Positions 6,598-54,488 of a stretch of DNA of 64,000 nucleotides are shown piece after piece. A program made the position numbers and the translations under genes. How positions within the stretch are numbered: the first letter of the stretch is position 1; the number at the start of each line of letters is the position of its first letter. Origin of the DNA: Bdellovibrionales bacterium (lineage in GTDB: Bacteria; Bdellovibrionota; Bdellovibrionia; Bdellovibrionales; UBA1609); NCBI GenBank assembly GCA_027317865.1, contig DAHVQG010000001.1:32001-96000 (forward strand), read 5' to 3'. The notes under the pieces are model-generated. The model worked only from the letters and a program-made list of their open reading frames with translations, did not search any database and was not told the DNA's origin.

Positions 6598-6876
6598 GGT
6601 TGTTTAAACCTTTTGCGTTTCTCTAATTTGTATCGGAATGAATCACCCTGGGCATGAGGATTGCCAAAGGGCGCAACGTACGACTCTAGCCCGCATAAAG
6701 GCGTGCTCGTCTGCTGTCCAGTCACCAGTTTGGCGGTCACCCGACAAGTTGGTGGCACAGAATATCATGATCAAGAGACGGTCAGGCTCGACTTAAAGCA
6801 AGAATTCCGTCACTAGCCGCCCTTGCAAGTGTTTTTTTTGGCGCTCTCAAGACGAACGTCCCCGAAGAAAACCGCG

Positions 6877-6893
6877 TTGGCACCAATTGTGCT
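6877..6893 (+). promoter_or_regulatory. sigma54 (-24/-12) promoter of the TPR-activator-flgB operon
   Basis: TTGGCACCAATTGTGCT: GG-N10-GC spacing directly before the operon. Confidence 0.7.
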
Positions 6894-6907
6894 TATTTAT
6901 TAAAATT

Positions 6908-22768: not shown

Positions 22769-22790
22769 AGGGGCTCGGGAACGGGCCCCT
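22769..22790. terminator. hairpin between convergent flgE and hypothetical gene
   Basis: AGGGGCTCG-GGAA-CGGGCCCCT stem-loop. Confidence 0.55.
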
Positions 22791-23769
22791 AGTCGTATTC
22801 GCTGAGTTGATTTTTCAAATTTTCAATTTCCGATTGATTGGGATTCGACTTTTTCTCTTCGGCGGCAATCTTTGCTTTTAATTCGCGCGCTTGCGCAAGA
22901 TCGAATGCTAAGCGGCGCGCATAATCTTTTTTAAAAGCGGTCTCTTCTTCGCGAGGTTGAAACACTCGCGAAAGATTTGAAACAGTGTTGTGAAAATTGG
23001 AACACGCAGCCGGCAACTTCGGCACGGCCATTGCAAAGTAGCACATTGAATAGGCGGTCAACGCCGAAAAGACAAGCCGCTTGGTCTTTTCTAAATAATA
23101 TTTTGCAACTACCGCCGATTGATAACGCCGCCCAATAATATTTGATAGGGTTTGCGCTCCTTGATTTTGCCAGACTTGATAATCCCGAAGATTGGGTTGC
23201 AAACTTCGCGGTGAACGCCATAATTTTTCGGCAACTCTTTTTGGCAGCAACTTTTGGGCGGTAAGTAACGGAAGGTGATCGAGGAGCATGTACATTTGCT
23301 CGTTTAGTTGCTGAATCTGTAGCAGCCCGGAAGTTGGCATTGGGGTCTCGCGTTTTGGTAAGCTCCAAAACCAAGTTTGCATTTGAAGTGTGTAGAGCGC
23401 GCCGGCGGTTTGCCAAACCGCAAGTTGTCGATCGTATTCGCTCATTTGCGGTCGGGTTCGCTCGACGAGTATTTTTTCTTTTCTAAACCGCGAAATGAAA
23501 CTCTGTGCAAATAACTGCCAAGGTTTTCGCCGCCGCTGTTTTATGACGTGAATTTGGCCCGAATCGAGTTCATCGGTGATTCGAAAGAGCCCGAGGTGAT
23601 GTATAAATTCGATCGGCCGAAAACGTTGTTCAGTCCAAGTGACTGGTGCCGCTGAAATAATGTCGTAACAACTTTCAATCTTCGGCGCGGGAGAGCCGTC
23701 GGCGTTTGCCGCACCGAAGATAGCGATTACGATCGCGATTAAAAAAGCAAATGCGCCATACCGATTCAT
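22789..23769 (-). CDS. hypothetical secreted/membrane protein
   Basis: 326-aa ORF with signal peptide (ANA-D) and C-terminal coiled coil; no family recognised. Confidence 0.65.
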   Translation of the reverse strand: MNRYGAFAFLIAIVIAIFGAANADGSPAPKIESCYDIISAAPVTWTEQRFRPIEFIHHLGLFRITDELDSGQIHVIKQRRRKPWQLFAQSFISRFRKEKILVERTRPQMSEYDRQLAVWQTAGALYTLQMQTWFWSLPKRETPMPTSGLLQIQQLNEQMYMLLDHLPLLTAQKLLPKRVAEKLWRSPRSLQPNLRDYQVWQNQGAQTLSNIIGRRYQSAVVAKYYLEKTKRLVFSALTAYSMCYFAMAVPKLPAACSNFHNTVSNLSRVFQPREEETAFKKDYARRLAFDLAQARELKAKIAAEEKKSNPNQSEIENLKNQLSEYD

Positions 23770-24791: not shown

Positions 24792-24807
24792 TGCAATCTA
24801 TTGGCCA
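24792..24807 (-). promoter_or_regulatory. sigma54 promoter of the two-gene secreted-protein unit
   Basis: Minus strand TGGCCAATAGATTGCA, GG-N10-GC, about 45 nt upstream of ATG. Confidence 0.65.
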
Positions 24808-29849: not shown

Positions 29850-32651
29850 CTAGTCGGATAGCGCCGCAACACATTTTGGACAAACGCCGGGGTAGCGCGA
29901 ATCGGCTCCGATTTCGGTACTGTAATTCCAGCAGCGTTCACACTTTTCACCTGGTGCGTGGCGCGCTTCAACAGAGAACGTTTGTTTGTCGTCGCGAATA
30001 AGTTGAACTGATGAGACGATCAAATATTCGCGTAGCCACGACTCACATTTTTTAAGTTCATCGAAGGTTCTGCCGCCTGCGCGCAAAATAACTTCAGCGT
30101 CGAGGTTTGAACCGATGACTTTATCTTGACGTAATGTCTCAAGCTTCTTTGATACGACTGCACGAATTTCGTCAAGCCGGGCGAAAAGCTCGAGAACTTC
30201 GCGATCATTCCATTCTGGTTTCGGAGTCGGAAAATCTGTCAAAAATATGCTTTCGCTTTTATTATCACCCGGCAAGAATGAATAAACTTCTTCGGTTAAA
30301 AACGATAAAATGGGGGCGAGAAGCCGCGACAAGACGCTAACCATTTCAACAAAAACAGTTTGTGAAGACCGGCGCGGGATGCCCGTCGGCTTACCCGTAT
30401 ATAGGCGATCTTTTAAAATGTCGAGATAAGTGGCGCTGAGGTCCGTCGTAAAAAATTGGTTGAGTGCATGGTAGACTTTGAAAAAATCATAGCTTTCGTA
30501 TGCGGCCGTCGCCGACGAGATGACTTGATTGAGCCGCGCCAAAGCCCATTGATCAATCGGTGGCATGTCTTTGAACGCAACGCGATCTTTTTTAGGATCA
30601 AAATCGCTCAGGTTGCCCAGCAAAAAACGCATGGTATTTCGAATTCGCCGGTATGTTTCGCTGACCCGCTTGCACATTTCGTCGGAGATCGTGACGTCTT
30701 CCCCGTAATCTTCATGGGCCACCCAAAGTCGTAAAATTTCAGCGCCGTATTTTTTAATCACTTCGGCCGGATCAACTACGTTGCCTTTGCTTTTGCTCAT
30801 TTTGTGGCCTTGCGCATCGTTGACAAATCCGTGCGTGATGAGCGCGCGAAACGGAGGATGTTCGTAAGCGGCCATTGACGAAATAAGACTCGTTTGAAAC
30901 CATCCACGATGTTGATCAGAACCTTCGAGATAAATGTCAGCAATTTCGTTATGCATGCGGGCGCGTTGAACACTGGTATGGCAACATCCCGAATCGAACC
31001 AGACATCAAGAATGTCGTCGCTTCGTTTAAACTTTGATTTTCCGCAGTTTTCGCATTTGTGACCGGCGGTGAAGGTTTCAACCGGACTATCAAAATAAGC
31101 TTCAATACCGGGCGCGGCTCCGTCTTTGCCGGGTGCTTCCATTGAGTCGGCAATTTTCTCCATAATTTCAGGTTTCATGAGCGGCGTTTCACAAGATTCA
31201 CAATAAAAAACCGGAATCGGTACACCCCAAGTGCGTTGCCTGCTTAAGCACCAATCAGGAGTATTTGCAACCATGGCTGTGAGGCGCGCTTGACCCCAAG
31301 CCGGAAAGTATTTGAGCTCATTTTCAACAACCGCGAGCGTTTTTTTGCGTAAACCAAAATTGTCATCCATTCGAATGAACCATTGGGGAGTGGCACGAAA
31401 AATCAGCGGCGTTTTCGTGCGCGGATTGTGCGGGTACGAGTGCACGATTTCTTTTTGCGCTAGGAGATGACCTGATTTTTTTAAATCTTCAACAATTTGC
31501 GCGTTGGCCGGCCAAATGCTTTGACCGGCGTATTTTGGCACGTCAGATGTAAATTTGCCGGCTGGGTCGACGGGTGAATAGACGGGTAAGTTATATTTGA
31601 GTCCCACGTGATAGTCTTCAAGACCATGGCCTGGGGCGGTGTGAACGGCTCCAGTGCCGGCATCAAGACTCACGTGATCACCCAAAATAATTAGTGAATC
31701 GCGATCAAGAAACGGATGTCGCGCATTTAAGTTCTCAAGTTCGGCGCCCTTCCAAATTGCAAGTGGTTCGCCAAGATTGAGGGCACATTCTTTAGCGATA
31801 CTATCCTTGAGTTCTGTTGCAAAAATTAGAATTTCAGAACCGGCATCGTACGCGCCGTATTCAAAATCCGCATTGAGGGCGACAGCAAAATTCGCAGGGA
31901 GGGTCCACGGGGTCGTCGTCCAGATCACGATTGACACGGGTTTTTTTGCGTTGAGCTTTCTAAGCGCCCCTTCAAGTTTAATGAAATTAAATTTCACATA
32001 AATAGAAAGACTTTTATGATCGTGATATTCCACTTCAGCTGCCGCCAAAGCGGTTTGCAAAGCCGGGCACCAATAAACCGGTTTGTTACCGCGAAAAACG
32101 ACGCCATTTTTGTAAATACGCGCGAGCACACGAATTTCATTTGCTTCGTAGGAGGGTGACATCGTGAGATAAGGATTATCCCACTTTGCAAGTACGCCGA
32201 GACGGACGAACTGTTCGCGCTGTTTATTGATCCACTTAGTTGCTTCTTCGCGGCACAAATCGCGGATTTGTTTTTTGGTTAAAGAGTTTTTTTTCTCACC
32301 CAGTTGAGATGTGACTTTGAGCTCGATCGGTAGACCGTGGCAATCCCATCCCGGAATAAATTCGGCTTTGTACCCCTGCATGTTGCGAAATTTGATGACG
32401 ATATCTTTGAGGACCTTATTCAGTGCCGTGCCGACGTGAACGTTACCATTGGCATAAGGAGGGCCATCCGGCATGACGAACGCGCGGCCGTTGGAATTCT
32501 TAGACATGATTTTTTCGTACAGCTTTGACGATCGCCATTTTTCAATAGCAATAGGCTCGGTTTGCGGCAAATTTGCCTTCATCGGAAAGGCCGTTTTCGG
32601 CAATATCACAGTATGTTTATAGCCTTCGCTTTTCTGCTCGCCCGAATTCAT
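29850..32651 (-). CDS. ileS: isoleucyl-tRNA synthetase (type 1)
   Basis: DGPPYANG, PGWDCHGLPIE, WTTTPWTLP, GTGAVHTAPGHG, EGSDQHRGWF, KMSKS, C-terminal CERC..CPKC zinc finger. Confidence 0.98.
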   Translation of the reverse strand: MNSGEQKSEGYKHTVILPKTAFPMKANLPQTEPIAIEKWRSSKLYEKIMSKNSNGRAFVMPDGPPYANGNVHVGTALNKVLKDIVIKFRNMQGYKAEFIPGWDCHGLPIELKVTSQLGEKKNSLTKKQIRDLCREEATKWINKQREQFVRLGVLAKWDNPYLTMSPSYEANEIRVLARIYKNGVVFRGNKPVYWCPALQTALAAAEVEYHDHKSLSIYVKFNFIKLEGALRKLNAKKPVSIVIWTTTPWTLPANFAVALNADFEYGAYDAGSEILIFATELKDSIAKECALNLGEPLAIWKGAELENLNARHPFLDRDSLIILGDHVSLDAGTGAVHTAPGHGLEDYHVGLKYNLPVYSPVDPAGKFTSDVPKYAGQSIWPANAQIVEDLKKSGHLLAQKEIVHSYPHNPRTKTPLIFRATPQWFIRMDDNFGLRKKTLAVVENELKYFPAWGQARLTAMVANTPDWCLSRQRTWGVPIPVFYCESCETPLMKPEIMEKIADSMEAPGKDGAAPGIEAYFDSPVETFTAGHKCENCGKSKFKRSDDILDVWFDSGCCHTSVQRARMHNEIADIYLEGSDQHRGWFQTSLISSMAAYEHPPFRALITHGFVNDAQGHKMSKSKGNVVDPAEVIKKYGAEILRLWVAHEDYGEDVTISDEMCKRVSETYRRIRNTMRFLLGNLSDFDPKKDRVAFKDMPPIDQWALARLNQVISSATAAYESYDFFKVYHALNQFFTTDLSATYLDILKDRLYTGKPTGIPRRSSQTVFVEMVSVLSRLLAPILSFLTEEVYSFLPGDNKSESIFLTDFPTPKPEWNDREVLELFARLDEIRAVVSKKLETLRQDKVIGSNLDAEVILRAGGRTFDELKKCESWLREYLIVSSVQLIRDDKQTFSVEARHAPGEKCERCWNYSTEIGADSRYPGVCPKCVAALSD

Positions 32652-33172
32652 TTTAACCTCTCGCCCATTTTTTCAATAAATTGCTGTCGCGAGTTTGTCT
32701 GCGGGAACATTTCACACACCCGTTCATAGCCGACAGCCACAAGTAAGCGCAGGGCTTCGCGTTCTGAACCTAAATTACATAGCGCTTGAACTTTGCGCAG
32801 AACCTCAATTGTACGTATGTCCAACGAATTAAAATTTTCTTGCGCGCTGCTTGGTACAAGCGGTTGTTGCAACGGCGGCGCGATGGGCATTGGTGCACGG
32901 GCCATCGGAGCTGGCGCGGTGGGGCTTTCAAATTGCTTCATCCCTTCAGCTAAGGCGCGCAGGTCTTGTTTGAATGCTTCGGAACTTGTCTCGGTCATAG
33001 TTGGCATCGTGCCACCGTTACGGCGCCTTGCTTGCAAATAGAGGGCGACAAGGCTATCTGAATTCGTCGCTAATTCGCGCACGGATTGCGGTTGCGACCG
33101 CATCCACTCGTAGGCTGCGGCGAGCATGTCGCGAGTGTATGCTTGCGGAGGGGGTAGCGGTACTGTTGCCAT
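32648..33172 (-). CDS. hypothetical protein
   Basis: 174-aa ORF, ATGA overlap with ileS, own sigma70-like promoter. Confidence 0.7.
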   Translation of the reverse strand: MATVPLPPPQAYTRDMLAAAYEWMRSQPQSVRELATNSDSLVALYLQARRRNGGTMPTMTETSSEAFKQDLRALAEGMKQFESPTAPAPMARAPMPIAPPLQQPLVPSSAQENFNSLDIRTIEVLRKVQALCNLGSEREALRLLVAVGYERVCEMFPQTNSRQQFIEKMGERLK

Positions 33173-33181
33173 TGGCGAACT

Positions 33182-33210
33182 AAGCTAGGCTCTGTACAGT
33201 AAATAGGCAA
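33182..33210 (-). promoter_or_regulatory. sigma70-like promoter for hypothetical-ileS
   Basis: Minus strand TTGCCT-N17-TAGCTT, 9 nt before ATG 33172. Confidence 0.5.
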
Positions 33211-33232
33211 GATTTTAATCGGCGCAAATAAA

Positions 33233-34720
33233 TTATTCGGCCGTTTCCGCGTAATCCTTCGCTACAATTCCATATTTTTCAATTTTTCTAAGCAGCGTTT
33301 TTTTCGGGATATTTGCGTGAAGCGCTGTCTGGTTGATGCGCCCCTTGAACATTTTCAAGGCTTTGATAATGAACTCGCGCTCAAACGCCTCCTTATGCTT
33401 GTTAAAATCTAAACTTTCACCTGAAATCGTCACAATTTCATCGCTGCGATTTTCGTTTGTTTCGTTTTCTTGCAGATCGTCCGCGTCTGGTTCGCCGGGT
33501 TCGTCAAAATTGTTGACATTCAGATTTGGCGCATTCAGCTCGACACCTGTTGCAAGCAAAAATGATTCCGGTAGCGATTGAACGGTCAAATGCGTGCCTT
33601 CTTCGAGAATAAATGCGTGTTCAATCACGTTTTCTAGCTCCCGAATGTTGCCCGGCCAGTCGTATTTTTTAAGTAGCGCCAGCGCTTCGGGGGTCGGCCC
33701 GATAATTTTTTTGCCCTGTTTTCTATTGAACTTTTGGATGAAATTTTTAACAAGCTGTTCGATGTCATCGCGCCGCTCAGAGAGTGAGGGTAAAAATATC
33801 GGCATGACATTGAGACGGTAATACAAATCTTCGCGAAACTTACCGTCTTTGTTCATCTGTTCGAGAGGCCGGTTGGTGGCGGCAATGATACGTACATTGG
33901 CTTCAATTTCGCGGTTTGACCCGACCGGGGTAAACACTTTTTCTTGAAGAACGCGCAAAAGTTTAACTTGCATCATAAGCGGCAAGTCACCAACTTCGTC
34001 TAAGAACAAAGTACCGCCTTCGGCATATTGAAATTTTCCGATTTTACGCTGATCAGCTCCCGTGAACGCGCCTTTTTCGTGGCCGAAAAGTTCTGATTCA
34101 AAAAGATTTTCTGGTATCGCCGAGCAGTTCAGTGCCACAAAGGGGCCCTCTTTCTGCGCGGAATTGACGTGAATGGCGCGGGCGACGAGTTCTTTACCGG
34201 TACCCGAAGCGCCTCGAATAAGAACGGGTGTGTCCACTTTCGAAAGCCGATGGATGACGTTAAACACTTTGCGCATTTGTGTATTGGAGCCGATGATTTT
34301 TCGGCCTTGTTCAGCCGAAAGTTGCGGCGCCGAGGCGACAACTTCTGAAACTAAATTGTACGCGGCAAGTGACTTGTTCACGAGATCGACGAGCTCTTCG
34401 CTTTTCACCGGCTTTGAAATGTAATTGTAGGCTCCTTCTTTGACTGCGCAAACCGCATCATTGATATTTGCGTACGCGGTCATGATGAGCACGATCATGG
34501 AGGGGTCAATTTCTTTAATTGCGCTAAGGGTTTTGAGGCCGTTGAGCCGCGGCATATCGACGTCTAAAATCACAAGATTATATGAGCCGGCTTTAATTTT
34601 ATCGAGAGCGTTAATGCCGTCAAACGCCTCGTCGGCGAGAAATTTACCGGTCGACTCCAACGTGTTTTTCACCGAGAGTCTTAAGCCTTGGTCGTCGTCG
34701 CAAACAAGAACTTTGATCAT
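33233..34720 (-). CDS. NtrC-family sigma54-dependent response regulator
   Basis: REC (VLVCDDD, LDVDMP, KP), [31 protein letters not shown]-terminal HTH. Confidence 0.95.
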
Positions 34721-34738
34721 GTTTCAGCTCCTTTAAAT

Positions 34739-36583
34739 TTACAAATCCATCGGGAGTTCGACGGTAAACGTCGAACCCTTCGTCGGTTCACTTTCAACCG
34801 AAATTTGACCGTGATGCAGCTGCACGAAGTAGCGCGCAAGATAAAGGCCGAGACCGTTACCTTTAATCGCGCCGTCGCGAACCGAGCGGCTGCGGTAAAA
34901 TTTCGTAAATAAATTTTCGAGTTCATCGTTGGGAATACCCATCCCCTGATCCGCCACTTGTACCATGAGACGCCCTTCGGTTTCTTCGGTTGTCACAAGT
35001 ACCGAGCTGCCTTCCGGACTGTATTTCACAGCGTTTTCAATAAGATTTGAAAACACTTGGCGCATCAAATCTTCGTCGATTTTAACGCTAAATAACGGTT
35101 CAAATTCGGTGACGATACGAATGCTTTTCTGTTTAGCGTAGTAATCCAGTTTTTGGATGGTTTCGGTGAGCAGCGCGTTTACGTCGCGGGACTTGAGCTG
35201 CAATTTAATATCCTTACTTTCGATACGGCCAAGATTGAGGATCGAGCCGACAAATTGGGTGAGCTCTTGCGACGATTCGCTAATCGTTTTTATGGCGTCT
35301 TGCTGTTGTGCGGTTAGGTGTGATGAATCGCGAAGTGCGATTTCGGTCATGCCTTGAATCCTCGCTAGAGGAGTTTTCAGGTCATGAGACATCAGTCGTA
35401 AAAAATTAGATTTGAGTTCCTCAACTTGTACAAGAAGGTTGTTGCGCTGAAAATATTCCCACGAACGGCGATTTTCGACAATCAACCGGTAAGGGATAAA
35501 AAAGTAATAACAAATAAAAACTGTAAGAAGCGGGTGTGAAACATCGATCCAAATGCCGGCGGCGGCGAACAATAACCAAGCGACAAAGAGAAACCCCGTC
35601 AAAGTAAGAACTAAAATATAAAGTCCGCGCACCGGTCGCAACGCAAGAACGATAAACACGGTGATAATGGCGATGAGGCACGTGATCATGAGATTAAGCC
35701 ATTTCGGAACTTGCACAGGAGCGTCGTTTAAAATTAGCGTATCAATCATGTTGGCTTGCAGTTCAGCTGTCGACATGGCCAGCTGATCGCGCGAATATGG
35801 GGTCATCGCGTAATCGTTTTCATTGGCCTTGTTGTCGATGCCGACGATGACAATTTTACCGCGAAATTTTTTAGGTGAAATATAACCTTGTTCGACGTCA
35901 ACAAAACTGTAATTCGGGTAGGTGCCGGTCGGTCGAAAGTTAATGTATGCTTGCTGAGTTCGTTTAAACGTGAAAACTCCACGATAATCTTTGACGCTCT
36001 TTTTGCCATTGATTTCGTCGGCAAGTTGCATCTGCGCAAGCGGCTTACCTTCGAAAGTTAAAATTACCCGCCGAGAAACGCCGTCTCGGGCAAAATTATA
36101 AACGTCAGCAGTTGTGGGGCCCGATTTGACGTCGAGATCTTGCAGCGGCGGGAGCAAACGAAATTCATCTTCGACGCCTTTGTCGGGGAGCGCGTTAGTT
36201 TTAAGAATGAGCAGATTGGCCCGTTTGGCCGCGCTCGCGAGCCTTTGAAGTTGCCCGTAAGATCCCATGATGTTGTTGAAATTATTCGTGTATAGAACGC
36301 GACGGGGCTTCGTTTGCGCAAGCCAGTTAAACAGTTTAACAAAATCATTCGCGTCGGGGAGCCGTTGCAACTCCTCTTGAGTTTTTTGATCGACGGTAAC
36401 CAACACGATGTTACCGGATGTGGCCGGGGCCGGCCGCGTTCTCACGCGCATGTCGTAAAAGAAACCTTCGAAATAGCTCAATCGAAACTGAAAAATAAGT
36501 ACGGCAAGGGCAATCGCCAGCCCGACTCTCAGGGCGGCAAATAGCCAACGCCGTTTTGATTTTTTATTTTTCTCAGTTTTCAT
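34739..36583 (-). CDS. CHASE2-domain sensor histidine kinase
   Basis: N-terminal TM, CHASE2 motifs (IVLVTVD, FRGKIVIVG, TPY, ELQANMIDTL), three TMs, H-box SHDLKTPL, NLIENAVKY, DQGMGI, GNGLGL. Confidence 0.92.
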   Translation of the reverse strand: MKTEKNKKSKRRWLFAALRVGLAIALAVLIFQFRLSYFEGFFYDMRVRTRPAPATSGNIVLVTVDQKTQEELQRLPDANDFVKLFNWLAQTKPRRVLYTNNFNNIMGSYGQLQRLASAAKRANLLILKTNALPDKGVEDEFRLLPPLQDLDVKSGPTTADVYNFARDGVSRRVILTFEGKPLAQMQLADEINGKKSVKDYRGVFTFKRTQQAYINFRPTGTYPNYSFVDVEQGYISPKKFRGKIVIVGIDNKANENDYAMTPYSRDQLAMSTAELQANMIDTLILNDAPVQVPKWLNLMITCLIAIITVFIVLALRPVRGLYILVLTLTGFLFVAWLLFAAAGIWIDVSHPLLTVFICYYFFIPYRLIVENRRSWEYFQRNNLLVQVEELKSNFLRLMSHDLKTPLARIQGMTEIALRDSSHLTAQQQDAIKTISESSQELTQFVGSILNLGRIESKDIKLQLKSRDVNALLTETIQKLDYYAKQKSIRIVTEFEPLFSVKIDEDLMRQVFSNLIENAVKYSPEGSSVLVTTEETEGRLMVQVADQGMGIPNDELENLFTKFYRSRSVRDGAIKGNGLGLYLARYFVQLHHGQISVESEPTKGSTFTVELPMDL

Positions 36584-36616
36584 GAGTCGAAATCTTTCGC
36601 GTTATTTGCAGTCGTA

Positions 36617-36736
36617 TTAAACCCAACTGCGTTCGGGGCAACCATTGGCGGCGCTTTTGCCTTCACGGGCAAGAGTCTCGCGTGTTTTATTGCCCGAAAC
36701 ATTCTTTGGTTTGCGGACTTTTTTAATGTGTTTCAT
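36617..36736 (-). CDS. 39-aa putative RiPP precursor peptide (SCIFF/CteA-like N-terminus, single Cys)
   Basis: AAGGAG RBS 6 nt before ATG 36736; overlaps the radical SAM stop; MKHIKKVRKPKNVSGNKTRETLAREGKSAANGCPERSWV. Confidence 0.75.
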   Translation of the reverse strand: MKHIKKVRKPKNVSGNKTRETLAREGKSAANGCPERSWV

Positions 36737-38057
36737 GTAAACTCCTTTTGTAGTACCAAATCGCGAGCGCCGCGATCTGGCGGGTTCGATGACAAAAATT
36801 TGGATCTTTTTCGTGACGGTTACCTGAAAATGATTTGTGTACAGCCATGCAACCCCCGCCGCATAAATGGCGTGCCCAGCAAGTTTGGCAGTGATTGAGT
36901 TCGATGAGCGTTGAGCCATAATGTTCAAGGTGCGGTTTTGACAAATCGGTGAGATGGCCGATTTTTTCGGTTTCGTCGTTCATAAACCAATTGCAAACAT
37001 AAAGGTCAGCGCGAGTATCGGATTGAATAAGCGATTTGCCCGCTCCGCAGTAATTATGCTGGCGCGTTTGACTCTCCAATCTCGTCAGCGGCCGTCTAAA
37101 CTGTTTGATTTTTACAAGCCCTGATAGCCCGTCGCGCGCGTAGAGCTTCGCGGCCGTTTTTTTCAATTCTTCAAGATAGCGGTTCGAAATTTCAAAGGCT
37201 GTTTCGGAGCGGTCGTTGTTTGAAAAGTTAAAATTATAGCGGTCAAAATCAAGATGAAGCGATTCGAGATAATCAAACGCCCGCTCGACTCGCGTATTGT
37301 GGGCGCCAAAAACGCAATTGACCGCGAGCGTACCAAGTTGATTCCGTACGGCACGTAGTTGTTCGAGTCCGCGAACGGTGAGCTCAGTTGAGCCATAACC
37401 GTTTTTTGCCTTTACCGGGCGGGTGAAGTCGTTTACTTCAGGTTCACCGTCAATGCTAACTGTGACGTGAAATCGATACCGCGCTAACATCTCCGCCGAT
37501 TCGCGTGTAATGAGGGTCCCATTGGTATTAATGGCAAAATGCAAATCAATGTCTCTTCCGCTTACCATCAATTGAGCGTAGCGGCACAGCGACTCAATGA
37601 CGTGCGGATAGAGCAGAGGTTCGCCTCCACAAAACTCAATTTCAAACGATTTGCTATCTTTGAGATTGGACAAAAAATACGAGATTTGTTGTTCGGCCTT
37701 ATGCGTGTCGATCTTTGTGATTTTAGAACCGTAAGTTCCGGCAGTTTCGTTCTTGCCATCAAAGTCGACGGCTGCGCAATAGGTACATTTTAAATTGCAT
37801 ATTTGCGCCACGTTAAGAAGCAGCGTACTTATTTCTCGCGACGAAGCGATGTCGGTTGTATCCGGAGAATTTTCTTTGTGCCACACCTCGAGTTCAGCCC
37901 TGATTTCGCTGTCTTTTTGAAGCGTGATTTCGTTTTCAAGCGCCTGCCAAACTTTTTCACTCAGTTCGGCAACTTCTAAGTTGCGCGCATGAAAACCCAA
38001 TACTTCGCCGTTTTCAGCGCGTGTTGCGAGAATGTCTTTGTAGCGGCGAAATTGCAT
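36723..38057 (-). CDS. radical SAM/SPASM peptide maturase (CteB/ranthipeptide-like)
   Basis: LNVAQICNLKCTYC (CxxxCxxC), FCGGEPLL, TNGTL, SIDG, SPASM CGAG..LYVC..CQTCWARHLCGGGC..C; GAGGG RBS before ATG 38057. Confidence 0.92.
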   Translation of the reverse strand: MQFRRYKDILATRAENGEVLGFHARNLEVAELSEKVWQALENEITLQKDSEIRAELEVWHKENSPDTTDIASSREISTLLLNVAQICNLKCTYCAAVDFDGKNETAGTYGSKITKIDTHKAEQQISYFLSNLKDSKSFEIEFCGGEPLLYPHVIESLCRYAQLMVSGRDIDLHFAINTNGTLITRESAEMLARYRFHVTVSIDGEPEVNDFTRPVKAKNGYGSTELTVRGLEQLRAVRNQLGTLAVNCVFGAHNTRVERAFDYLESLHLDFDRYNFNFSNNDRSETAFEISNRYLEELKKTAAKLYARDGLSGLVKIKQFRRPLTRLESQTRQHNYCGAGKSLIQSDTRADLYVCNWFMNDETEKIGHLTDLSKPHLEHYGSTLIELNHCQTCWARHLCGGGCMAVHKSFSGNRHEKDPNFCHRTRQIAALAIWYYKRSLHETH

Positions 38058-38125
38058 TTTCTTACCCTCTACGTGCAAAAAACAGCGTTGAAAATTCAAG
38101 GTGGTGTCAAACCCGTGTATCTAAG

Positions 38126-38141
38126 AGCAAATCACTTGCCA
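38126..38141 (-). promoter_or_regulatory. sigma54 promoter of the radical SAM-peptide-kinase-regulator unit
   Basis: Minus strand TGGCAAGTGATTTGCT vs consensus TGGCACG-N4-TTGCW (one mismatch). Confidence 0.75.
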
Positions 38142-38170
38142 GGCTTAAACCCGCAAAATAAGGGGCTTAG

Positions 38171-38205
38171 GCGACAATAAGTGTCACTTTGACACCAGAT
38201 TGTCA
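38171..38205. promoter_or_regulatory. cluster of TGTCA/TGACA inverted half-sites, candidate activator-binding site
   Basis: GCGACA-N5-TGTCA, GTGTCA-CTT-TGACAC, TGACA-N6-TGTCA overlapping, 30-65 nt upstream of the sigma54 motif. Confidence 0.45.
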
Positions 38206-38236
38206 ATCCACAGGAGTAACTGCAGAGCACAGGCCT

Positions 38237-39130
38237 TTAAAGTTTTTGATAAATGAGTACGAATTCAGATGTCGTGGTAGGAGCGTCAACCGGCACTGTT
38301 TTGATGTCAAAGGTCAACGTGTCGTTGTTGGGTTGCCGCGCAGTTAGCGTTGTATTTTCAAGTGTTGTACCGTTTAGCCAAACGAAATGGAGGTGACTGT
38401 TTTGGTTGGCCGGAGGTTTCGCAACAGGCGCAGTGGTTTGCGGCATTGGCCCCACAAAATCGGCGCTGGCGGCTGAAATTTGAGGCTGTGGTTTTTGAGC
38501 TTTCGGTTTCGACATGAGCCACGCGAGTGGGTTAAATGCCGTTGGCGTTACCGTTGAAAGATCGTACTCACCCTCAGGAGTTCGAAAATCAGACATGGGT
38601 ATAAGACGGTCGGGTTTGAGATAAAAGTTATAAACGACTTGTGCATCGGGTATGGCGGCGTTTTTAATAAATCCTTTGTTACCTTCAAACAGTCGCGGAA
38701 TAACAAGGCTTGAAGTCATGTTTTCTTCGGCAATATTGATGGGACTCGTATACTCAGTCACGACACTTTCGGGTTCACTGATTTCGGGGAGTGTATCTGT
38801 AAAGAGCACCTCAACGCTGTCGGTAATGTCTGTGACATGAGTCAAAATTTTAGTGAGCGCATATTTGCCGCTACCAAATGTTTTTTTAAAATTGAGATTT
38901 TTCCAAGCAAGCGCCGGCGAGTTGCCCGCCGCTTTTTTAATTTCGCGCTGAATGTCTTTGTGGCTCGCAAAACCACTGTTATCTACATTGCCGATGAGAG
39001 AGAGATCTTCAACATTGATATCGTCGGCTTTAGCCTTGGCGGTCAATAAAATGTTGGTTGCGCCAATAATGGCCAGCGCTGTAATAGCCGTGGCAATCAG
39101 ATTCGAATTTCGTTGTGTAAATCGCTTCAT
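38237..39130 (-). CDS. hypothetical secreted protein
   Basis: 297 aa, signal peptide ending AKA-D, Pro/Thr-rich C-terminal linker; no family recognised. Confidence 0.7.
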   Translation of the reverse strand: MKRFTQRNSNLIATAITALAIIGATNILLTAKAKADDINVEDLSLIGNVDNSGFASHKDIQREIKKAAGNSPALAWKNLNFKKTFGSGKYALTKILTHVTDITDSVEVLFTDTLPEISEPESVVTEYTSPINIAEENMTSSLVIPRLFEGNKGFIKNAAIPDAQVVYNFYLKPDRLIPMSDFRTPEGEYDLSTVTPTAFNPLAWLMSKPKAQKPQPQISAASADFVGPMPQTTAPVAKPPANQNSHLHFVWLNGTTLENTTLTARQPNNDTLTFDIKTVPVDAPTTTSEFVLIYQKL

Positions 39131-39144
39131 AACCTTTTGAAATG

Positions 39145-39162
39145 TATCAAGAGCCGTGCCAA
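39145..39162 (-). promoter_or_regulatory. probable sigma54 promoter (GA variant at -12)
   Basis: Minus strand TTGGCACGGCTCTTGATA: perfect -24 element TGGCACG, then N4-TTGA. Confidence 0.55.
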
Positions 39163-39309
39163 CTCTTGCCGCACAAGTTTTTGAAAATCCAACAAGGTTC
39201 GAATAGTTAGAACAGTGTCGCGGGCTAAAATGATGAAAGTTGAACAGGGTTTTGAAATCACTTCAGAGCCAAAAAACGACGCCGTTGCGCCGCATTTCAG
39301 CGCTATTGG

Positions 39310-41667
39310 CTACTTTATCCGAATAAGTGTTGTGTTTTGGGCGGTTTCAAACGGGTAAGCGGTCGGAACTTGTTTTCTAAGTTGCGCAGCCGTGTAAGTG
39401 AACTTTTCGACTCCTTTGGGCCACGCAAAATCGTCTTTCGGAAAGCGCTTGCAGTAGTCGCGCATGAAACTGAGCCACAATGGCAAGGCTCCGCTTGCTC
39501 CGGTAAGCATTGAAGGAGTGTTATCGTCGTAGCCTGTCCACGTAACAGTGAGCACGTGTGGAGTAAACCCAACGAACCACGCGTCGCGCGTGTCGCTTGT
39601 TGTTCCGGTTTTACCGGCCGCTGGCCAATCGAAACCTTCGAGGGTCGCGCGCCTGGCCGTTCCGGTCAACAAAGTTTGTTTCATCATGCCGATTAAAACA
39701 GCCACTGTTTGCGGCGAAAACGCACGCACGTCTTTGGGGTGAGCCACATAAATTTCTTGCCCGTCCGGGTCCGTCACGCGCAGGACATACTGCAGCGGCC
39801 GCATGAGTCCGAAGCGGGCAACGGTAAGCGCGCCAGTTGCGACTTCCCACGGGTAAAGCTCAAATGCTCCAAGAGTGAGAGACGGTAGGGGTTCTATATT
39901 TGACTGCGTAATGCCGGCGCGACGGGCGACGTCGACAATGTTGGTTAACCCAACCTGTATGCCCATCCTTGCCGTTGCATCGTTGAGGGAATCTTTGAGC
40001 GCATAAAAAAGCGGCACCTCGCCATGATAAGTTCGCGTATAGTCGCGTGGCGACCACTCTTGACCTTGATAATGGTAAACAAACGGTTCGTCTTTTATAA
40101 GTGAAGTTGCTGTATAAGGTTTGCCGTTGGGTTGATTGCCTTCGAGCGCGGCTAAATAGTCAAATATCTTCATGACGGAGCCGACTTGCCTATGGGCATC
40201 GAGCACGCGGTTATATTGCGTATTTTCAAAATGGCGGCCACCGACCAGCGCTAAAACATCGCCGGTGTCGACATCGACTGAAATTAACGAAGCTTCTAAT
40301 TTTTCGCCTTTGGCCTTGAGTTTTGTAATGTACGGGTCATCCTGCTCAAGTTTGCGCACGTGCTCGAGCACCTTTTTTTCGGCGCTTTCTTGGGCGCCCA
40401 CGTCGAGTGAAGTGTAAACGTTAAGTCCGTTTTCAGTGCTGATATTCAGTCGTTTTAGCTCGCGAAAAATCGCCTGCGTATAGTAGGGTGCCGGGTCATG
40501 AAGCGATTCTTCGGACTGCGTTGGGAGCGGGGTCGAGTTCGCCCAATCCGCATCTTGCTGCGAAATCATTTTGTCAGATACCATAGCCTTGAGAACAAGC
40601 GACCGCCGCTCGCGCGCATGATTAGGGTGCGTGAACGGATCAAAGTAACCTGGGTTATTAATGATTGCCGCAAGCAGGGCACATTTTGGCAAATCGATCG
40701 AGTTCAATTTTTCGTTGAAATAGTGGCGGCTGGCCGCGCCGAATCCGATCACTTGAAACGGTCCGCTTTGGCCCATGTAAATGACGTTGAGATAATTTTC
40801 GAGGATTTGATCTTTGCGTAAACTCGCGTCGAGTAGCATCGCCATAACGACTTCAGTGATTTTACGGCGCAGGGTTTTTTGCGGAGTTAAAAAATAATTT
40901 TTCACAAGTTGTTGGGTAATGGTGCTGCCGCCTTCCGCATAGCGACCTTTTAAAACGTCGTTTACCAATGCACGAAGAATGCCCTTAAAGCTGATCCCCG
41001 GGTTTTCAAGAAAAGTACGGTCTTCTATCGCTGTGACGGCCTCCGAGCAATCGAGCGGGACATCGCCCATATCTATGATTTGCCGCAAAATAGGTTTGCC
41101 GTTGTAGAACTGCGCAAAAAGTTCCGGTTCCAGTTGAACCGATTTGACTTCCGTAAATGGTTCACCGCCGAAAATGTGTGAGATTGTCCAACTCCCGTCG
41201 CCTTGCTGGCCCTGAATCGGCGCAGACGGCGCTTCTCCGTGAGAAAACGCAATCAAAACGGGCGTGCCGGCTTCTGACGGTTTAATTGTGTCGTCGCCTT
41301 CGCGAAATTCCACGCATGCATCCAGACCGCTCATAAAATCGTCGTTTAAAATTTTGGCGCATTGATCGTGGTTGAGCATGATGAAATCTTTCGGGTAAAG
41401 CGACTCCGAACCAAACCGTTCACGGTAGTGCCGTTGCAGAAGGGATTTTCGAACCGTGCTTGCTGAAATGATTTCGTGAGTAAATAAAACTTCGCCGCGC
41501 GCGTAGAGGTTGACCGGCGGGCGAAACCAACCGTGGGCGATTCGTTTTTTCATTTCGATGTCGAGGCGCCACGCCCAAATCGCGACGGCAACAGCGCCAA
41601 GAAAAGTAAAAACAAATATTCGGCCGAGCCACTTTCGCCATTTATGCGACTTCATCTTGCTTGACAT
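39310..41667 (-). CDS. mrcB: bifunctional class A penicillin-binding protein (PBP1B-like)
   Basis: TM anchor, UB2H-like region, AIEDRTF, GGSTITQQLVKN, RKITE, YLNVIYMG; SVMK (SxxK), SLN, KTGT. Confidence 0.88.
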   Translation of the reverse strand: MSSKMKSHKWRKWLGRIFVFTFLGAVAVAIWAWRLDIEMKKRIAHGWFRPPVNLYARGEVLFTHEIISASTVRKSLLQRHYRERFGSESLYPKDFIMLNHDQCAKILNDDFMSGLDACVEFREGDDTIKPSEAGTPVLIAFSHGEAPSAPIQGQQGDGSWTISHIFGGEPFTEVKSVQLEPELFAQFYNGKPILRQIIDMGDVPLDCSEAVTAIEDRTFLENPGISFKGILRALVNDVLKGRYAEGGSTITQQLVKNYFLTPQKTLRRKITEVVMAMLLDASLRKDQILENYLNVIYMGQSGPFQVIGFGAASRHYFNEKLNSIDLPKCALLAAIINNPGYFDPFTHPNHARERRSLVLKAMVSDKMISQQDADWANSTPLPTQSEESLHDPAPYYTQAIFRELKRLNISTENGLNVYTSLDVGAQESAEKKVLEHVRKLEQDDPYITKLKAKGEKLEASLISVDVDTGDVLALVGGRHFENTQYNRVLDAHRQVGSVMKIFDYLAALEGNQPNGKPYTATSLIKDEPFVYHYQGQEWSPRDYTRTYHGEVPLFYALKDSLNDATARMGIQVGLTNIVDVARRAGITQSNIEPLPSLTLGAFELYPWEVATGALTVARFGLMRPLQYVLRVTDPDGQEIYVAHPKDVRAFSPQTVAVLIGMMKQTLLTGTARRATLEGFDWPAAGKTGTTSDTRDAWFVGFTPHVLTVTWTGYDDNTPSMLTGASGALPLWLSFMRDYCKRFPKDDFAWPKGVEKFTYTAAQLRKQVPTAYPFETAQNTTLIRIK

Positions 41668-52840: not shown

Positions 52841-52857
52841 TTGGCATTTGAGTTGCT
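52841..52857 (+). promoter_or_regulatory. sigma54 promoter of the fliL operon; candidate upstream site TGTC-N10-GACA at 52729-52746
   Basis: TTGGCATTTGAGTTGCT, GG-N10-GC. Confidence 0.75.
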
Positions 52858-52926
52858 CCTGAAATGGTCAGGGGAGTGTGTGAGTTGTTTAACCGACTCC
52901 ACGGCTACTCAAAAAGGGGGCGAATC

Positions 52927-53457
52927 GTGGCAGAACAAAAAGCACCGGAACCGGCACCAGCGGCGGCACCAGCACCATCCGGTGGAAAGCCAACCTTATT
53001 TATCATTTTGGCCGTTGTGAACATGTTAGTTGTGGCCGCCGTCGGAGCAATGATTTTTCTCAACCGAAAACGGCAAGCCTCGCAAACTACAATTCAGCAG
53101 GTAATAAACGCTGAAGCCACGCAAGAAAAGAAAGAACAAGAAAATCCCGAATTCATCGGTAAACTTGTTCCCCTTGATACATTCCTCGTTAATCTCGCCG
53201 GTAGTCGAGGACAAAAGCTTGTAAAAGTTGATATGGAGCTTGAAGTCAGCAATACCGCCGTTGAAAAAGAAATCAACACGATCATGCCGAAAATTCGCGA
53301 CATTATAATCATAATTCTGTCTTCTAAAACGTATGCGCAAATTGCCACAGCTCAAGGCAAAGACGAACTGCGCAACGAAATTCGCGATAAAGTGAATTTG
53401 TTTTTAACAAAGGGCCGAATCAAACGCGTATATTTTACGGAATTTATTTATAACTAA
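52927..53457 (+). CDS. fliL: flagellar basal body-associated protein FliL
   Basis: TM, FLVNLA, PKIRDIII, GKDELRNEI, VYFTEFI; GTG 52927 after AAGGGGG. Confidence 0.92.
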   Translation: MAEQKAPEPAPAAAPAPSGGKPTLFIILAVVNMLVVAAVGAMIFLNRKRQASQTTIQQVINAEATQEKKEQENPEFIGKLVPLDTFLVNLAGSRGQKLVKVDMELEVSNTAVEKEINTIMPKIRDIIIIILSSKTYAQIATAQGKDELRNEIRDKVNLFLTKGRIKRVYFTEFIYN

Positions 53458-53477: not shown

Positions 53478-54488
53478 ATGAGCCAAGTTCTGTCACAAAG
53501 TGAAGTCGACGCGCTCCTCGCCGCAGTATCAGAGGGTGAAATCGCCGGGCAAGACGCAAACGGTGACGCCGGTGGAGCAGGCGCGGTTGAAAAAAAAGAC
53601 GATCGCATCGTCGTTTCGTATGATTTAACGAGCCAAGATCGGATTATTCGCGGTCGGTTGCCGCAACTTGAAGTTATATACGAAAAGTTTATGCGGTCGT
53701 TCCGCGTCTCGCTCTCGTCAGCTTTAAGAAAAATTGCGACGCTCAACCACGCGAGCACCGATTTTTTGAAATTCGGCGAGTTCATCAACACTCAACCGAT
53801 GCCGACCTGCATGAGCGTGTTGCGTTTCAATGCCCTACGCGGTTCGGTTTTGTTCGTTGTTGAATCAAAACTTGCGTACGCTCTTGTTGACAATTTTTTC
53901 GGCGGTGCCGACCGACCTTACACAAAAACTGAAGGCAAAGACTTTACTGCCATCGAGCTACAAATTATTCGAAAAGTCGTGGATTTGGCTATTGGCGATC
54001 TCGAAGAAGCATGGGCATCAGTCGAAAAAATCGATTGCTCGTTTTTGCGTACCGAAATTAACCCGCAGTTTGTCGGGATTGTTCCCCCGACAGATATAGT
54101 TATCGCTTCGACTTTCGACGTCGAACTTGAAAACGCGAACGGGATTATCACGCTCGTCATCCCCTATTCGACTATTGAGCCGATCAAACAGAAATTGCAG
54201 TCGGGATTTCAAGTTGAATCTGATCAAACAGATAAAAAACTTTGGTCATCCACCTTTATCGAGCAACTTTTAGGAACTGAAGTCGAGGTAAAAGTCGATC
54301 TCGGCGAGACCGAAGTGTCACTCGGGGATCTTTTGGAACTTAAAGCAGGCGATGTGGTTTCGCTCAATCAAGACGCCACGGGCGAGTTCGATGTACAAAT
54401 TGAAGGAGTTCGAAAGTTTAAATCATACTATGGCATTCATCACGGTTCGGTCGCGGTTCAAATCACGCGGCCGGTTGAAAAGGGATGA
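53478..54488 (+). CDS. fliM: flagellar motor switch protein FliM
   Basis: VLSQSEVDALL, FFGG, FTAIE, EINPQF, C-terminal SpoA domain. Confidence 0.96.
   Translation: MSQVLSQSEVDALLAAVSEGEIAGQDANGDAGGAGAVEKKDDRIVVSYDLTSQDRIIRGRLPQLEVIYEKFMRSFRVSLSSALRKIATLNHASTDFLKFGEFINTQPMPTCMSVLRFNALRGSVLFVVESKLAYALVDNFFGGADRPYTKTEGKDFTAIELQIIRKVVDLAIGDLEEAWASVEKIDCSFLRTEINPQFVGIVPPTDIVIASTFDVELENANGIITLVIPYSTIEPIKQKLQSGFQVESDQTDKKLWSSTFIEQLLGTEVEVKVDLGETEVSLGDLLELKAGDVVSLNQDATGEFDVQIEGVRKFKSYYGIHHGSVAVQITRPVEKG

Follow-up and report, generated by a model that had tools for sequence, protein, structure and literature searches.

A radical-SAM/SPASM maturase, a 39-residue peptide, a CHASE2 histidine kinase and an NtrC-type activator are encoded together in Bdellovibrionales bacteria, and within this group of genes the peptide core varies in step with the maturase and with the kinase's sensor half, a pattern that the kinase core, the regulator and the neighboring genes do not share. 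The pattern is new; no paper describing the cassette was found in the literature searched. The explanation we favor, with confidence slightly above even, is that these genes may form a self-activating (autoinducing) peptide-signaling cassette in which the peptide is sensed by CHASE2.

Gene content and the precursor peptide

The stretch of DNA analyzed, 64,000 nucleotides from a Bdellovibrionales bacterium (the window), carries the four genes on its minus strand with a promoter and a palindrome ahead of them (Table 1). Coordinates of the open reading frames bear out the tight same-strand arrangement described in an earlier note made from the sequence alone: the maturase and peptide genes overlap by 14 nt (36723-36736), and gaps of 33 nt (36584-36616) and 18 nt (34721-34738) separate peptide from kinase and kinase from regulator. 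That note had also bounded the unit by a sigma70-like promoter belonging to the next gene, a promoter that was not found here: 0 of 11 promoter-like matches fall in 33173-33232. With neither a promoter-like match nor a terminator-like site found after the regulator, the 3' end of the unit may lie farther downstream. Its remark that the locus lacks a dedicated exporter or protease proved correct: no conserved one was found in the locus, and no C39-peptidase exporter was found in genome G000 (99% complete).

Table 1. Coordinates of the features of the operon within the window.
Feature	Position	Strand	Remarks
Maturase ORF, full open frame	36723-38099	minus	radical-SAM/SPASM
Maturase coding region from most likely start	36723-38057	minus	444 aa
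Precursor peptide gene	36617-36736	minus	39 aa; ATG within longer TTG ORF
CHASE2 histidine kinase gene	34739-36583	minus	Pfam CHASE2, HisKA and HATPase_c
Kinase sensor module, residues 1 to ~350	35534-36583	minus	TM1, periplasmic CHASE2, three further TM helices
Cytoplasmic kinase core, HisKA and HATPase_c	34739-35533	minus	conserved half of kinase gene
NtrC-type response regulator / sigma-54 enhancer-binding protein	33233-34720	minus	REC, AAA+ with GAFTGA, HTH_8
Candidate sigma-54 (-24/-12) promoter TGGCAAGTGATTTGCT	38126-38141	minus	GG-N10-GC spacing
Nested dyad upstream of promoter	38173-38205	minus	inner palindrome GTGTCA-N3-TGACAC at 38181-38195

The most likely start of the maturase is the ATG at 38057, behind AGAGGG, since the conserved N-terminus M-x-(L)-R-R-Y-K-D-I begins there; about 85 residues then precede the CX3CX2C motif. 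Membership in the radical SAM superfamily follows from Pfam model PF04055 (3.8e-14, 53.6 bits against a cutoff of 29.5), with Fer4_12 matching as well, and from C87, C91 and C94, which belong to a set of ten cysteines invariant across 15 orthologs. The other seven (C337, C355, C390, C393, C399, C403 and C422), including C390-x2-C393-x5-C399-x3-C403, place the enzyme among SPASM proteins, with predicted binding of auxiliary 4Fe-4S clusters, and the Pfam SPASM model is not among its matches at E up to 0.01. The closest solved structures are CteB, itself a SPASM enzyme (5wgg, E 2.8e-25), and anSME (4k36-39, ~5e-11). Scores fall below cutoff for PapB (NF047865, 176 bits vs. 340), the nif11-type family (TIGR04064, 170 vs. 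519), the QhpD type (TIGR03906, 144 vs. 453), the SCIFF maturase (TIGR03974, 129 vs. 425) and the anaerobic sulfatase maturase (TIGR03942, 98 vs. 349; the window's peptide core reads C-P-E). The maturase is related to curated ranthipeptide and thioether families and is a member of none.

The precursor, MKHIKKVRKPKNVSGNKTRETLAREGKSAANGCPERSWV, has an N-terminal HIKK leader box and, near its C-terminus, one Cys followed by Pro. The peptide is basic and hydrophilic and lacks any hydrophobic stretch resembling a signal peptide; AAGGAG stands 8 nt ahead of its ATG. All 16 relatives' loci have an equivalent reading frame, as do all 78 further Bdellovibrionales loci that extend 250 nt or more downstream (71 recognized by pattern, 7 by eye). 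Together with the leader box and the Cys-(x)-Pro core, these counts uphold the earlier reading of the small ORF as a genuine precursor gene. An alternative overlapping frame, 36580-36702, is not conserved in relatives. Alignment A3 of 59 peptides yields the consensus KHIKKVKP...G-x-x-C-x-P, in which I4, K5 and C33 are nearly invariant; substrate peptides in the family run from 30 to 45 residues. Many relatives' cores terminate in C-I/V-P-V/I-R, most cores do not end in R, and only some fit C-x-P-x-R. The peptide has only one Cys, and no acceptor residue keeps a fixed spacing across the family; in ranthipeptides, a thioether joins the Cys sulfur to a non-alpha carbon of another residue. The peptide matches no Pfam or NCBIfam model, and no curated family fits it.

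Of the two signaling proteins, the kinase matches CHASE2 (PF05226, 9.2e-28, 97.9 bits against a cutoff of 26.3) over residues 24-306, flanked on both sides by hydrophobic stretches as in CHASE2 sensor proteins, and its core matches HisKA (1.9e-15) and HATPase_c (1.7e-29). The regulator matches Sigma54_activat (PF00158, 1.7e-72, 243 bits), Response_reg (PF00072, 9.1e-26) and HTH_8 (PF02954, 3e-05), and GAFTGA can be read in its translation; it is an enhancer-binding protein of the NtrC type, encoded in the unit as previously proposed. It scores below every NCBIfam equivalog cutoff for a named regulator (NtrC, for example, 428 bits vs. 558.6).

Promoter, palindrome and occurrence among relatives

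A single match to TGGCAN6TTGC is weak evidence for a promoter, because two occur in the 64-kb window against 0.86 expected. Among relatives, 16 of 17 loci have a similar sigma-54-like element immediately ahead of the maturase, as do 30/30 loci of genus g59, and at 13/13 loci of genus g52, which lacks the maturase, one stands directly upstream of the kinase; rpoN is found in G000, interrupted by a contig end. From the element, its conservation and the presence of rpoN, we regard the near-consensus site ahead of the unit, as the earlier note did, as a candidate sigma-54-dependent promoter. The looser pattern TGGCN7TTGCW has five matches in the window against 1.68 expected, a count reached in 2 of 100 shuffles, and besides the operon's own only two stand ahead of a gene (24792-24807 and 52842-52857); the assertion of many other sigma54 promoters nearby was overstated. 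The suggestion that the circuit feeds them is likewise unsupported, the strict palindrome GTGTCA-N3-TGACAC standing at no other promoter in the 2.65-Mb genome, where its second and last copy lies between convergent ORFs. The palindrome motif is conserved as a sequence across families, recurring upstream of the promoter in relatives bearing the maturase, at 11 of the 13 loci of genus g52, and, in exact form, at 4 of 16 maturase-less loci, with about eight near-matches by eye. We infer that it may be the site (UAS) to which the sigma-54 activator encoded in the operon binds.

In an order-level sample of 251 genomes, the kinase was present in every one of the 131 that bear the maturase. The four-gene synteny, small ORF included, is conserved: the kinase comes after the maturase at 74/74 loci long enough to show it, and at 61 of the 63 loci offering 3500 nt or more, the regulator comes after the kinase. 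The cassette occurs in 99 of 102 sampled genomes of the Bdellovibrio family, cultured strains included. Maturase and peptide are missing from 54 of the 185 kinase-bearing genomes in the order; of the 82 genomes from the family to which the window belongs, 43 have the kinase and only 9 the maturase. At these maturase-less loci the sensors are intact open frames, preceded as elsewhere by the promoter and palindrome. The sensor can thus persist where this peptide is absent, and sensor halves there are 37-45% identical to that of the window, compared with 35-49% in maturase-bearing relatives at like distance. The earlier note had counted against its own reading any general lack of maturase and peptide beside kinase and regulator orthologs transcribed from a separate promoter; part of this is seen, in the numbers just given, but the promoter is the same one and not a separate one.

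Retention of the two-component pair with its promoter and palindrome in those 54 genomes fits the view that the peptide is an output, with CHASE2 sensing some other periplasmic cue and the activator turning on a radical-SAM-modified peptide that acts elsewhere, for example on prey or competitors, or as a small cofactor-like molecule. RiPP clusters often bring their own regulators, and maturase and peptide are the promoter-proximal genes here. We nevertheless think it unlikely that the peptide is simply an output, since no maturase occurs without the kinase among the genomes searched and the peptide gene has none for immunity, transport or tailoring beside it. It would also leave unexplained two features described below: the peptide core tracks the sensor half and not the kinase core or regulator, and the replaced block ends at the sensor/kinase junction.

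Co-variation and block exchange

Peptide core and CHASE2 show a partial correlation of 0.39-0.44 when regulator or PBP distance is controlled for, and of 0.31 when regulator and maturase are both controlled for; between peptide core and maturase it is 0.28-0.45. Control correlations with the peptide core are -0.02 to 0.08 for the kinase core, -0.08 for IleRS, 0.15 for PBP and 0.17 for a neighboring 174-aa gene, and the leader box correlates with CHASE2 at 0.13. Over 25 independent sister pairs, the peptide core has Spearman coefficients of 0.585 with the sensor and 0.728 with the maturase, and of -0.18 with the kinase core. Kinship inflates the Mantel-type p-values. Co-variation could also come about through physical linkage if selection acted on nothing but the sensor.

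The transmembrane region also co-varies with the peptide core (0.54-0.60 in sister pairs), and co-variation with the sensor module including that region is to be expected of any direct partner. The peptide might accordingly be a private modulator, never released, that tunes kinase or regulator from the cytoplasm or membrane as a feedback connector, much as the small protein MgrB acts on PhoQ; that no export signal, exporter or protease was found, and that the peptide gene lies within its own presumed target operon, suit this idea. The strongest co-variation, however, is with periplasmic CHASE2, the coefficient for the transmembrane region dropping to 0.04 once the maturase is conditioned on, and neither kinase core nor regulator co-varies with the peptide. 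A radical-SAM cross-link with a separable leader is, moreover, typical of released RiPPs, and we hold a private modulator to be quite improbable.

Pairs of loci whose sensor halves are only 20-58% identical can have kinase cores 90-100% identical. In the pairs L111/L115 and L096/L119, identity reaches 90-93% in the regulator and 91-92% in the kinase core but only 36-37% in the CHASE2 part and ~50% in the maturase, with a jump at about kinase residue 350. A DNA comparison of L111 with L115 aligns the flanks at 70-75% and 81.6%, whereas 5861-8522, from promoter to sensor, does not align; on its left side the replaced block extends past the promoter and does not stop inside the maturase. The block from promoter to sensor has been replaced whole between close Bdellovibrio lineages. 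Trees of sensor and maturase group by peptide core type and the tree of kinase core plus regulator does not; AU tests reject rival groupings with p of 0.001, 1e-5 and 1e-4 for groups that were defined with the FastTree trees already in view. Among the 30 genomes of genus g59, every one of which has the peptide, sensor distance at matched kinase-plus-regulator distances of 0.05-0.12 is 0.31 within a core class and 0.57 between classes. Clear exchanges are few, since in the g59 trees peptide class needs five changes on kinase plus regulator and four on sensor or maturase.

If the exposed sensor is under diversifying selection for an unrelated cause, recombination tracts that span it could bring the neighboring peptide and maturase genes with them. 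Such hitch-hiking draws on the contiguity of peptide, maturase and sensor, the small number of clear exchange events and the kinship shared by the tests, but we rate it as very improbable. It does not account for a left edge upstream of the promoter in L111/L115, nor for a correlation of peptide core with sensor that persists given the maturase (0.31). The sensor also diverges more slowly relative to kinase plus regulator in the peptide-less genus, 2.0-2.4 times in g52 and 3.0-5.4 times in g59, a comparison of one genus against one.

Co-variation and whole-block exchange are expected if the sensor recognizes the peptide. They favor the earlier proposal of a modified peptide as CHASE2 ligand in a positive loop; kinases without a peptide in 54 of 185 genomes, and a locus in which no exporter or protease was found, weigh against it. 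In the autoinducing cassette we favor, the phosphorylated regulator would bind the upstream palindrome and open the sigma-54 promoter, and a single transcript would carry all four genes, that of the regulator included. The maturase would recognize the HIKK leader and modify the C-terminal core on its one Cys or close to it, most likely by a single thioether of the ranthipeptide kind, with Cys oxidation as an alternative. The processed peptide would then reach the periplasm by a route encoded outside the locus, where its recognition by the CHASE2 sensor module would raise kinase activity and close a positive loop; the signal might be shared between cells (quorum sensing) or private.

Pheromone circuits that join a maturase and its modified peptide to a two-component receptor are well established in Gram-positive bacteria and almost unknown in Gram-negatives. 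We suggest tentatively, at somewhat less than even confidence, that Bdellovibrio-type predators use a radical-SAM-modified, one-cysteine ribosomal peptide as a cell-to-cell pheromone read by CHASE2, with strain pherotypes arising by joint divergence and occasional exchange of the maturase-peptide-sensor cassette. If so, peptide quorum sensing of the comQXPA/agr kind would exist in a Gram-negative lineage. A peptide ligand would give CHASE2, a widespread sensor domain for which hardly any ligands are known, its first ligand class, and would imply density- or kin-dependent regulation in predatory bacteria. The near-universal presence of the cassette in the Bdellovibrio family, cultured strains included, makes the proposal directly testable; differing core types in close strains predict groups showing cross-talk or interference, and the one-Cys core offers a simple substrate for the chemistry of this radical-SAM clade.

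Comparison with known systems

In nisin and subtilin systems, a two-component system (NisRK, SpaRK) senses a RiPP and activates the RiPP's own operon, the autoinduction layout proposed here. Those peptides are antibiotics, and their clusters carry transport, protease and immunity genes, which are not conserved at loci of the window type. The anSME enzymes are radical-SAM/SPASM relatives of the maturase, and the C-I/V-P-V/I-R ends of relatives' cores resemble the sulfatase motif C/S-x-P-x-R; the substrate here, however, is a short peptide and not a sulfatase.

Maturases of the SCIFF/CteB, PapB and QhpD types are the best NCBIfam matches, sharing the CX3CX2C motif, the seven-Cys region and a Cys-containing substrate, with CteB the nearest structure. 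A link between ranthipeptides and cell-density regulation has been reported for clostridia (Chen et al. 2020, as cited in PMC8102284). The window's maturase nevertheless scores far under the cutoffs of these families, its substrate has one Cys and not several, and the HIKK leader and Cys-x-Pro core match no curated precursor family. No fixed linkage of ranthipeptide maturase families to a CHASE2 kinase is described in the literature searched.

Staphylococcal agrBDCA encodes maturase, peptide, kinase and regulator in the order seen here, with autoinduction and with a hypervariable block made up of maturase, peptide and kinase sensor. The likeness is one of layout only: AgrB is a membrane protease, the signal a thiolactone and AgrA a LytTR protein, and Pfam finds no agr-type domains in the four proteins. 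Nor is the cassette a comQXPA system proper, with prenylated ComX and a LuxR-type ComA, given that the Pfam families differ, although comQXPA too, we take it from its four-gene description, has no dedicated exporter among its four genes. According to PMC4008528, comQXPA of Bacillus subtilis has the order maturase, small precursor, membrane kinase and response regulator, with overlapping maturase and peptide genes, and its maturase, peptide and N-terminal sensor are polymorphic while the cytoplasmic kinase part and regulator are conserved, giving rise to pherotypes. In gene order, strand, maturase/peptide overlap and pattern of polymorphism, the window's cassette is the same. It is built from non-homologous proteins: a radical-SAM/SPASM maturase in place of the isoprenyl transferase ComQ, a periplasmic CHASE2 sensor in place of the polytopic domain of 8-10 TM helices in ComP, and a sigma-54 AAA+ activator in place of a regulator with a LuxR-type HTH, in a Gram-negative predator whose proposed loop would include its own sigma-54 promoter.

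Genes of the cassette and the precursor peptide

We read the cassette, with odds tipping slightly in favour, as self-inducing: a peptide made by the radical-SAM/SPASM maturase would be recognised by the CHASE2 module of the kinase and would induce its own operon. The four same-strand genes described in the earlier note are borne out, all lying on the minus strand with families as assigned by Pfam, and the spacings given there (a 14-nt overlap between maturase and peptide, then gaps of 33 nt to the kinase and 18 nt to the regulator) are exact. The maturase most likely starts at the ATG at 38057, giving 444 aa, since AGAGGG precedes that codon and the conserved N-terminus of orthologues begins there.

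Features of the cassette and of other sites discussed, in window coordinates
Feature	Position	Strand	Basis or remark
Radical-SAM maturase ORF	36723-38099	-	Pfam
Peptide ORF, 39 aa	36617-36736	-	ORF reading
Histidine kinase, CHASE2/HisKA/HATPase_c	34739-36583	-	Pfam
Regulator, Response_reg/Sigma54_activat/HTH_8	33233-34720	-	Pfam
Sigma-54-like promoter TGGCAAGTGATTTGCT	38126-38141	-	GG-N10-GC spacing
Nested dyad, inner part GTGTCA-N3-TGACAC	38181-38195	-	about 40 nt further upstream of the sigma-54 element
174-aa gene	32648-33172	-	no Pfam or NCBIfam match
297-aa protein	38237-39130	-	no Pfam match
Sigma-54-like element TGGCATTTGAGTTGCT	52842-52857	+	directly before fliL
fliL	52864-53457		Pfam FliL, 5.4e-25
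fliM	53478-54488		Pfam FliM, 1.2e-57
Sigma-54-like element	24792-24807	-	33 nt upstream of the next two ORFs
Successive ORFs, both 326 aa	23779-24759, 22789-23769		no Pfam match

An Rfam search over 32000-39500 returned only two sub-threshold chance matches. The sigma70-like promoter claimed for the gene after the regulator did not appear in a consensus scan of the intergenic gap, nor did a scan find a terminator there; operon read-through into the 174-aa gene is therefore possible. That gene shares 4 nt with the start of ileS, and across the order most relatives' loci have it after the regulator. The 297-aa protein, encoded between the penicillin-binding protein gene and the operon, has a signal-like N-terminal hydrophobic stretch and is recognisable in close relatives only.

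Judged by comparison among relatives, the 39-aa ORF is a real peptide gene. A small same-strand ORF lies between maturase and kinase in all 16 relatives' loci, in every one of the 78 loci (71 by pattern, 7 by eye) that offered 250 nt or more beyond the maturase among 80 further loci taken, and in 30 of 30 genomes examined of genus g59. The family alignment shows an N-terminal Lys-rich box, (K/T)-H-I-K-K-(V/I)-K-P, absent from just one of the 78 further loci, then a spacer that varies, and at the C-terminus a core whose one Cys is followed by x-Pro; in close relatives of the window the Cys stands directly before Pro-Glu. Searches of Pfam and NCBIfam matched neither the window peptide nor those of six relatives, even at E-values up to 10. 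An alternative small ORF at 36580-36702, overlapping the kinase start by 4 nt, was rejected, its frame being conserved in 0 of 16 loci. Many relatives' precursors (e.g. those of loci L138, L115, L120 and L099) carry Gly-Gly one to four residues ahead of the Cys, reminiscent of double-glycine leader cleavage sites and absent from the window's peptide.

In the orthologue alignment the maturase shows CX3CX2C together with seven more invariant Cys, arranged as in SPASM enzymes. Among curated families its best relatives are peptide maturases that form thioethers, with every score far under its cut-off: PapB (176 bits, cut-off 340), nif11-type (170, 519), QhpD-type (144, 453), SCIFF maturase (129, 425) and anSME (98, 349). 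Among solved structures CteB (5wgg, E 2.8e-25) is closest and anSME comes next. Scores under all cut-offs, with CteB nearest, place the maturase in the thioether-maturase clade as a member of no described family. The cores of many relatives read C-I/V-P-V/I-R, resembling the sulfatase motif used by anSME; this likeness makes Cys oxidation a possible modification beside a possible thioether, although the window's own core reads C-P-E. Core types carried by strains include C-I-P-V-R, C-I-P-V-K and C-I-P-L-G-T.

Linkage, distribution and promoter

The earlier note had proposed a search for conserved four-gene synteny with a similar small ORF, and such synteny is found: besides the ORF, all 74 loci with enough room (at least 1500 nt) have the kinase after the maturase, and 61 of the 63 that extend for at least 3500 nt have the regulator after the kinase, the exceptions being L141 and L146. 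L146 is rearranged, with the regulator upstream on the other strand, and at G176:C32:30646-35574, in another genome, maturase and kinase sensor lie on opposite strands 2.5 kb apart. Those of the related loci that carry a label are almost all Bdellovibrionales, Bdellovibrio or Pseudobdellovibrionaceae, cultured Bdellovibrio strains among them. L141, labelled a Streptomyces griseus MAG, and L150, labelled Proteobacteria bacterium, show the Bdellovibrio-type maturase-peptide-kinase arrangement, L141 with the penicillin-binding-protein neighbour as well; these contigs are probably mis-binned or mislabelled.

Across an even choice of 251 genomes of the order (completeness at least 90%), the maturase occurs in 131 and the sensor in 185. 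All 131 fall within the 185, so that among the genomes searched the kinase always accompanies peptide and maturase, while kinase and regulator are often alone. By family, maturase and sensor were found in 99 and 102 of 102 genomes in f10, 20 and 20 of 20 in f12, 9 and 43 of 82 in the window's own family f1, 0 and 5 of 5 in f3, 0 and 3 of 3 in f5, and 0 and 4 of 5 in f9; genomes of the phylum outside the order gave a weaker match in 2 of 158. Sixteen maturase-less loci contained neither a maturase remnant nor a peptide ORF, and their upstream gene varies. Two cases come from the window's genus. At L049 (genome G002) the palindrome and a sigma-54-like element stand directly before a kinase gene that is intact; the 297-aa neighbour lies upstream, and maturase and peptide are both missing, which looks like a clean deletion of the two. 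At G001:C36:2597-3750 the kinase sensor matches in three separate open frames (residues 3-145, 147-246 and 259-381); no maturase was found in this genome, 93% complete, and its kinase may be decaying after loss of the peptide genes.

The near-consensus sigma-54 promoter of the earlier note is borne out as a sequence element, and a like one immediately precedes the maturase in 16 of 17 loci, as it does in 30 of 30 g59 loci. Of the 16 mixed loci that lack the maturase, 7 have such an element directly before the kinase, as do all 13 loci of the maturase-less genus g52. In 11 of the 13 g52 loci the palindrome GTGTCA-N3-TGACAC precedes the promoter by 43-45 nt; the mixed loci have it exactly in four, with near-matches by eye in about eight. 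It is kept as sequence, beyond the hairpin, across relatives with only 40-55% protein identity. On this pattern the promoter is attributed to the two-component pair, and the arrangement is most simply read as a sigma-54 operon under its own control, with maturase and peptide inserted between promoter and kinase. The palindrome is a candidate site, which we infer the regulator binds; rpoN is present in the window's own genome (G000), at a contig end. The earlier note would have counted it against its circuit if orthologues of kinase and regulator generally lacked maturase and peptide and had a separate promoter: the pair without the two genes is indeed frequent, but in the maturase-less loci just counted it is a like sigma-54 element that stands before the kinase.

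The strict palindrome has two copies in G000, the second between convergent ORFs, and looser forms gave 3 and 6 matches, none before a sigma-54-like site; no target for a wider regulon in that genome can be proposed from strict or looser matches. The "many" sigma-54 promoters reported nearby shrink to five sigma-54-like sites in the window against 1.68 expected, two of them, beyond the operon's own, well placed. The element before fliL-fliM probably acts as a flagellar sigma-54 promoter under another activator.

Against the reading that the sensor recognises the peptide, intact sensors persist without a peptide in many genomes. With a promoter assigned to the pair, the peptide could be a regulated output instead, a reading that we consider possible if rather doubtful, and that has to be set beside the co-variation of core and sensor. 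Peptide-less sensors may read something else; that they listen to other strains' peptides is only a thought.

Co-variation of the peptide core with the sensor and maturase

Pairwise divergence of the peptide core, taken as six residues on each side of the Cys, was compared with that of neighbouring proteins (n = 15 to 51 loci). Its partial correlation with the periplasmic CHASE2 part was 0.39-0.44 given the regulator or the penicillin-binding protein, and 0.31 given regulator and maturase together; with the maturase it was 0.28-0.45 given the regulator or the penicillin-binding protein. The kinase core gave -0.02 to 0.08 under those same two controls. Given the regulator, IleRS gave -0.08, and the equally fast-evolving penicillin-binding protein and 174-aa neighbour gave 0.15 and 0.17. 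No tracking of CHASE2 is seen for the leader box (0.13, and 0.07 after maturase). Permutation p-values overstate these relations because kin are not independent; over 25 non-overlapping sister pairs with regulator distance removed, the sensor gave a rank correlation of 0.585, the maturase 0.728 and the kinase core -0.18. Within g59 (435 pairs), at kinase-plus-regulator distances of 0.05-0.12, pairs that share a core class had a sensor distance of 0.31 (IQR 0.28-0.34; 76 pairs) and pairs of different classes one of 0.57 (IQR 0.55-0.60; 73 pairs). Sensor divergence relative to kinase plus regulator was 2.0-2.4 times in g52 (66 pairs) and 3.0-5.4 times in g59, a comparison of one genus with one.

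Two pairs of loci, L111/L115 and L096/L119, have mosaic kinase genes. Their regulators are 90-93% and their kinase cores 91-92% identical, their CHASE2 parts 36-37% and maturases about 50%, and their peptide cores differ; along the kinase, 20-58% identity gives way to 95-100% near residue 350, where the membrane region ends. DNA of L111 and L115 aligns upstream (70-75%) and from mid-kinase on (81.6%), with 5861-8522, from just before the promoter to the sensor end, unaligned except for one 223-nt piece. Sensor and maturase trees group by peptide core type, whereas the tree of kinase core and regulator does not; AU tests reject the rival groupings (p 0.001, 1e-5 and 1e-4), for groups picked after the first trees were seen. 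In g59, core class needs five changes on the kinase-plus-regulator tree and four on the sensor or maturase tree, so there are few clear exchanges, and concerted fast divergence makes up most of the signal. Hitch-hiking, in which linkage together with selection acting only on the sensor could imitate some of the co-variation, we regard as improbable.

Export and comparison with known systems

The earlier note's statement that the locus holds no dedicated exporter or protease is upheld in that none is conserved, the genes upstream of the maturase varying among relatives. A Peptidase_C39 exporter was not found in G000, and the window peptide is without a signal-like stretch. That the peptide is a private intracellular modulator is a reading to be placed beside these observations, and we think it unlikely. 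In the portions of the open literature searched, PMC13642348 among them, we found no description of the cassette; it may figure in supplementary BGC tables as a generic ranthipeptide cluster.

The self-inducing reading, with a sensor that would recognise the maturase-made peptide, is favoured because the pattern matches that of comQXPA, and agr shows the matching pattern too. The comQXPA system has four genes in the order of this cassette; its maturase and peptide genes overlap, and its sensor is variable at the N-terminus and joined to a cytoplasmic part that is conserved (PMC4008528). The layout would be functionally analogous to comQXPA and agr, but its parts are unrelated and its host is a Gram-negative predator.
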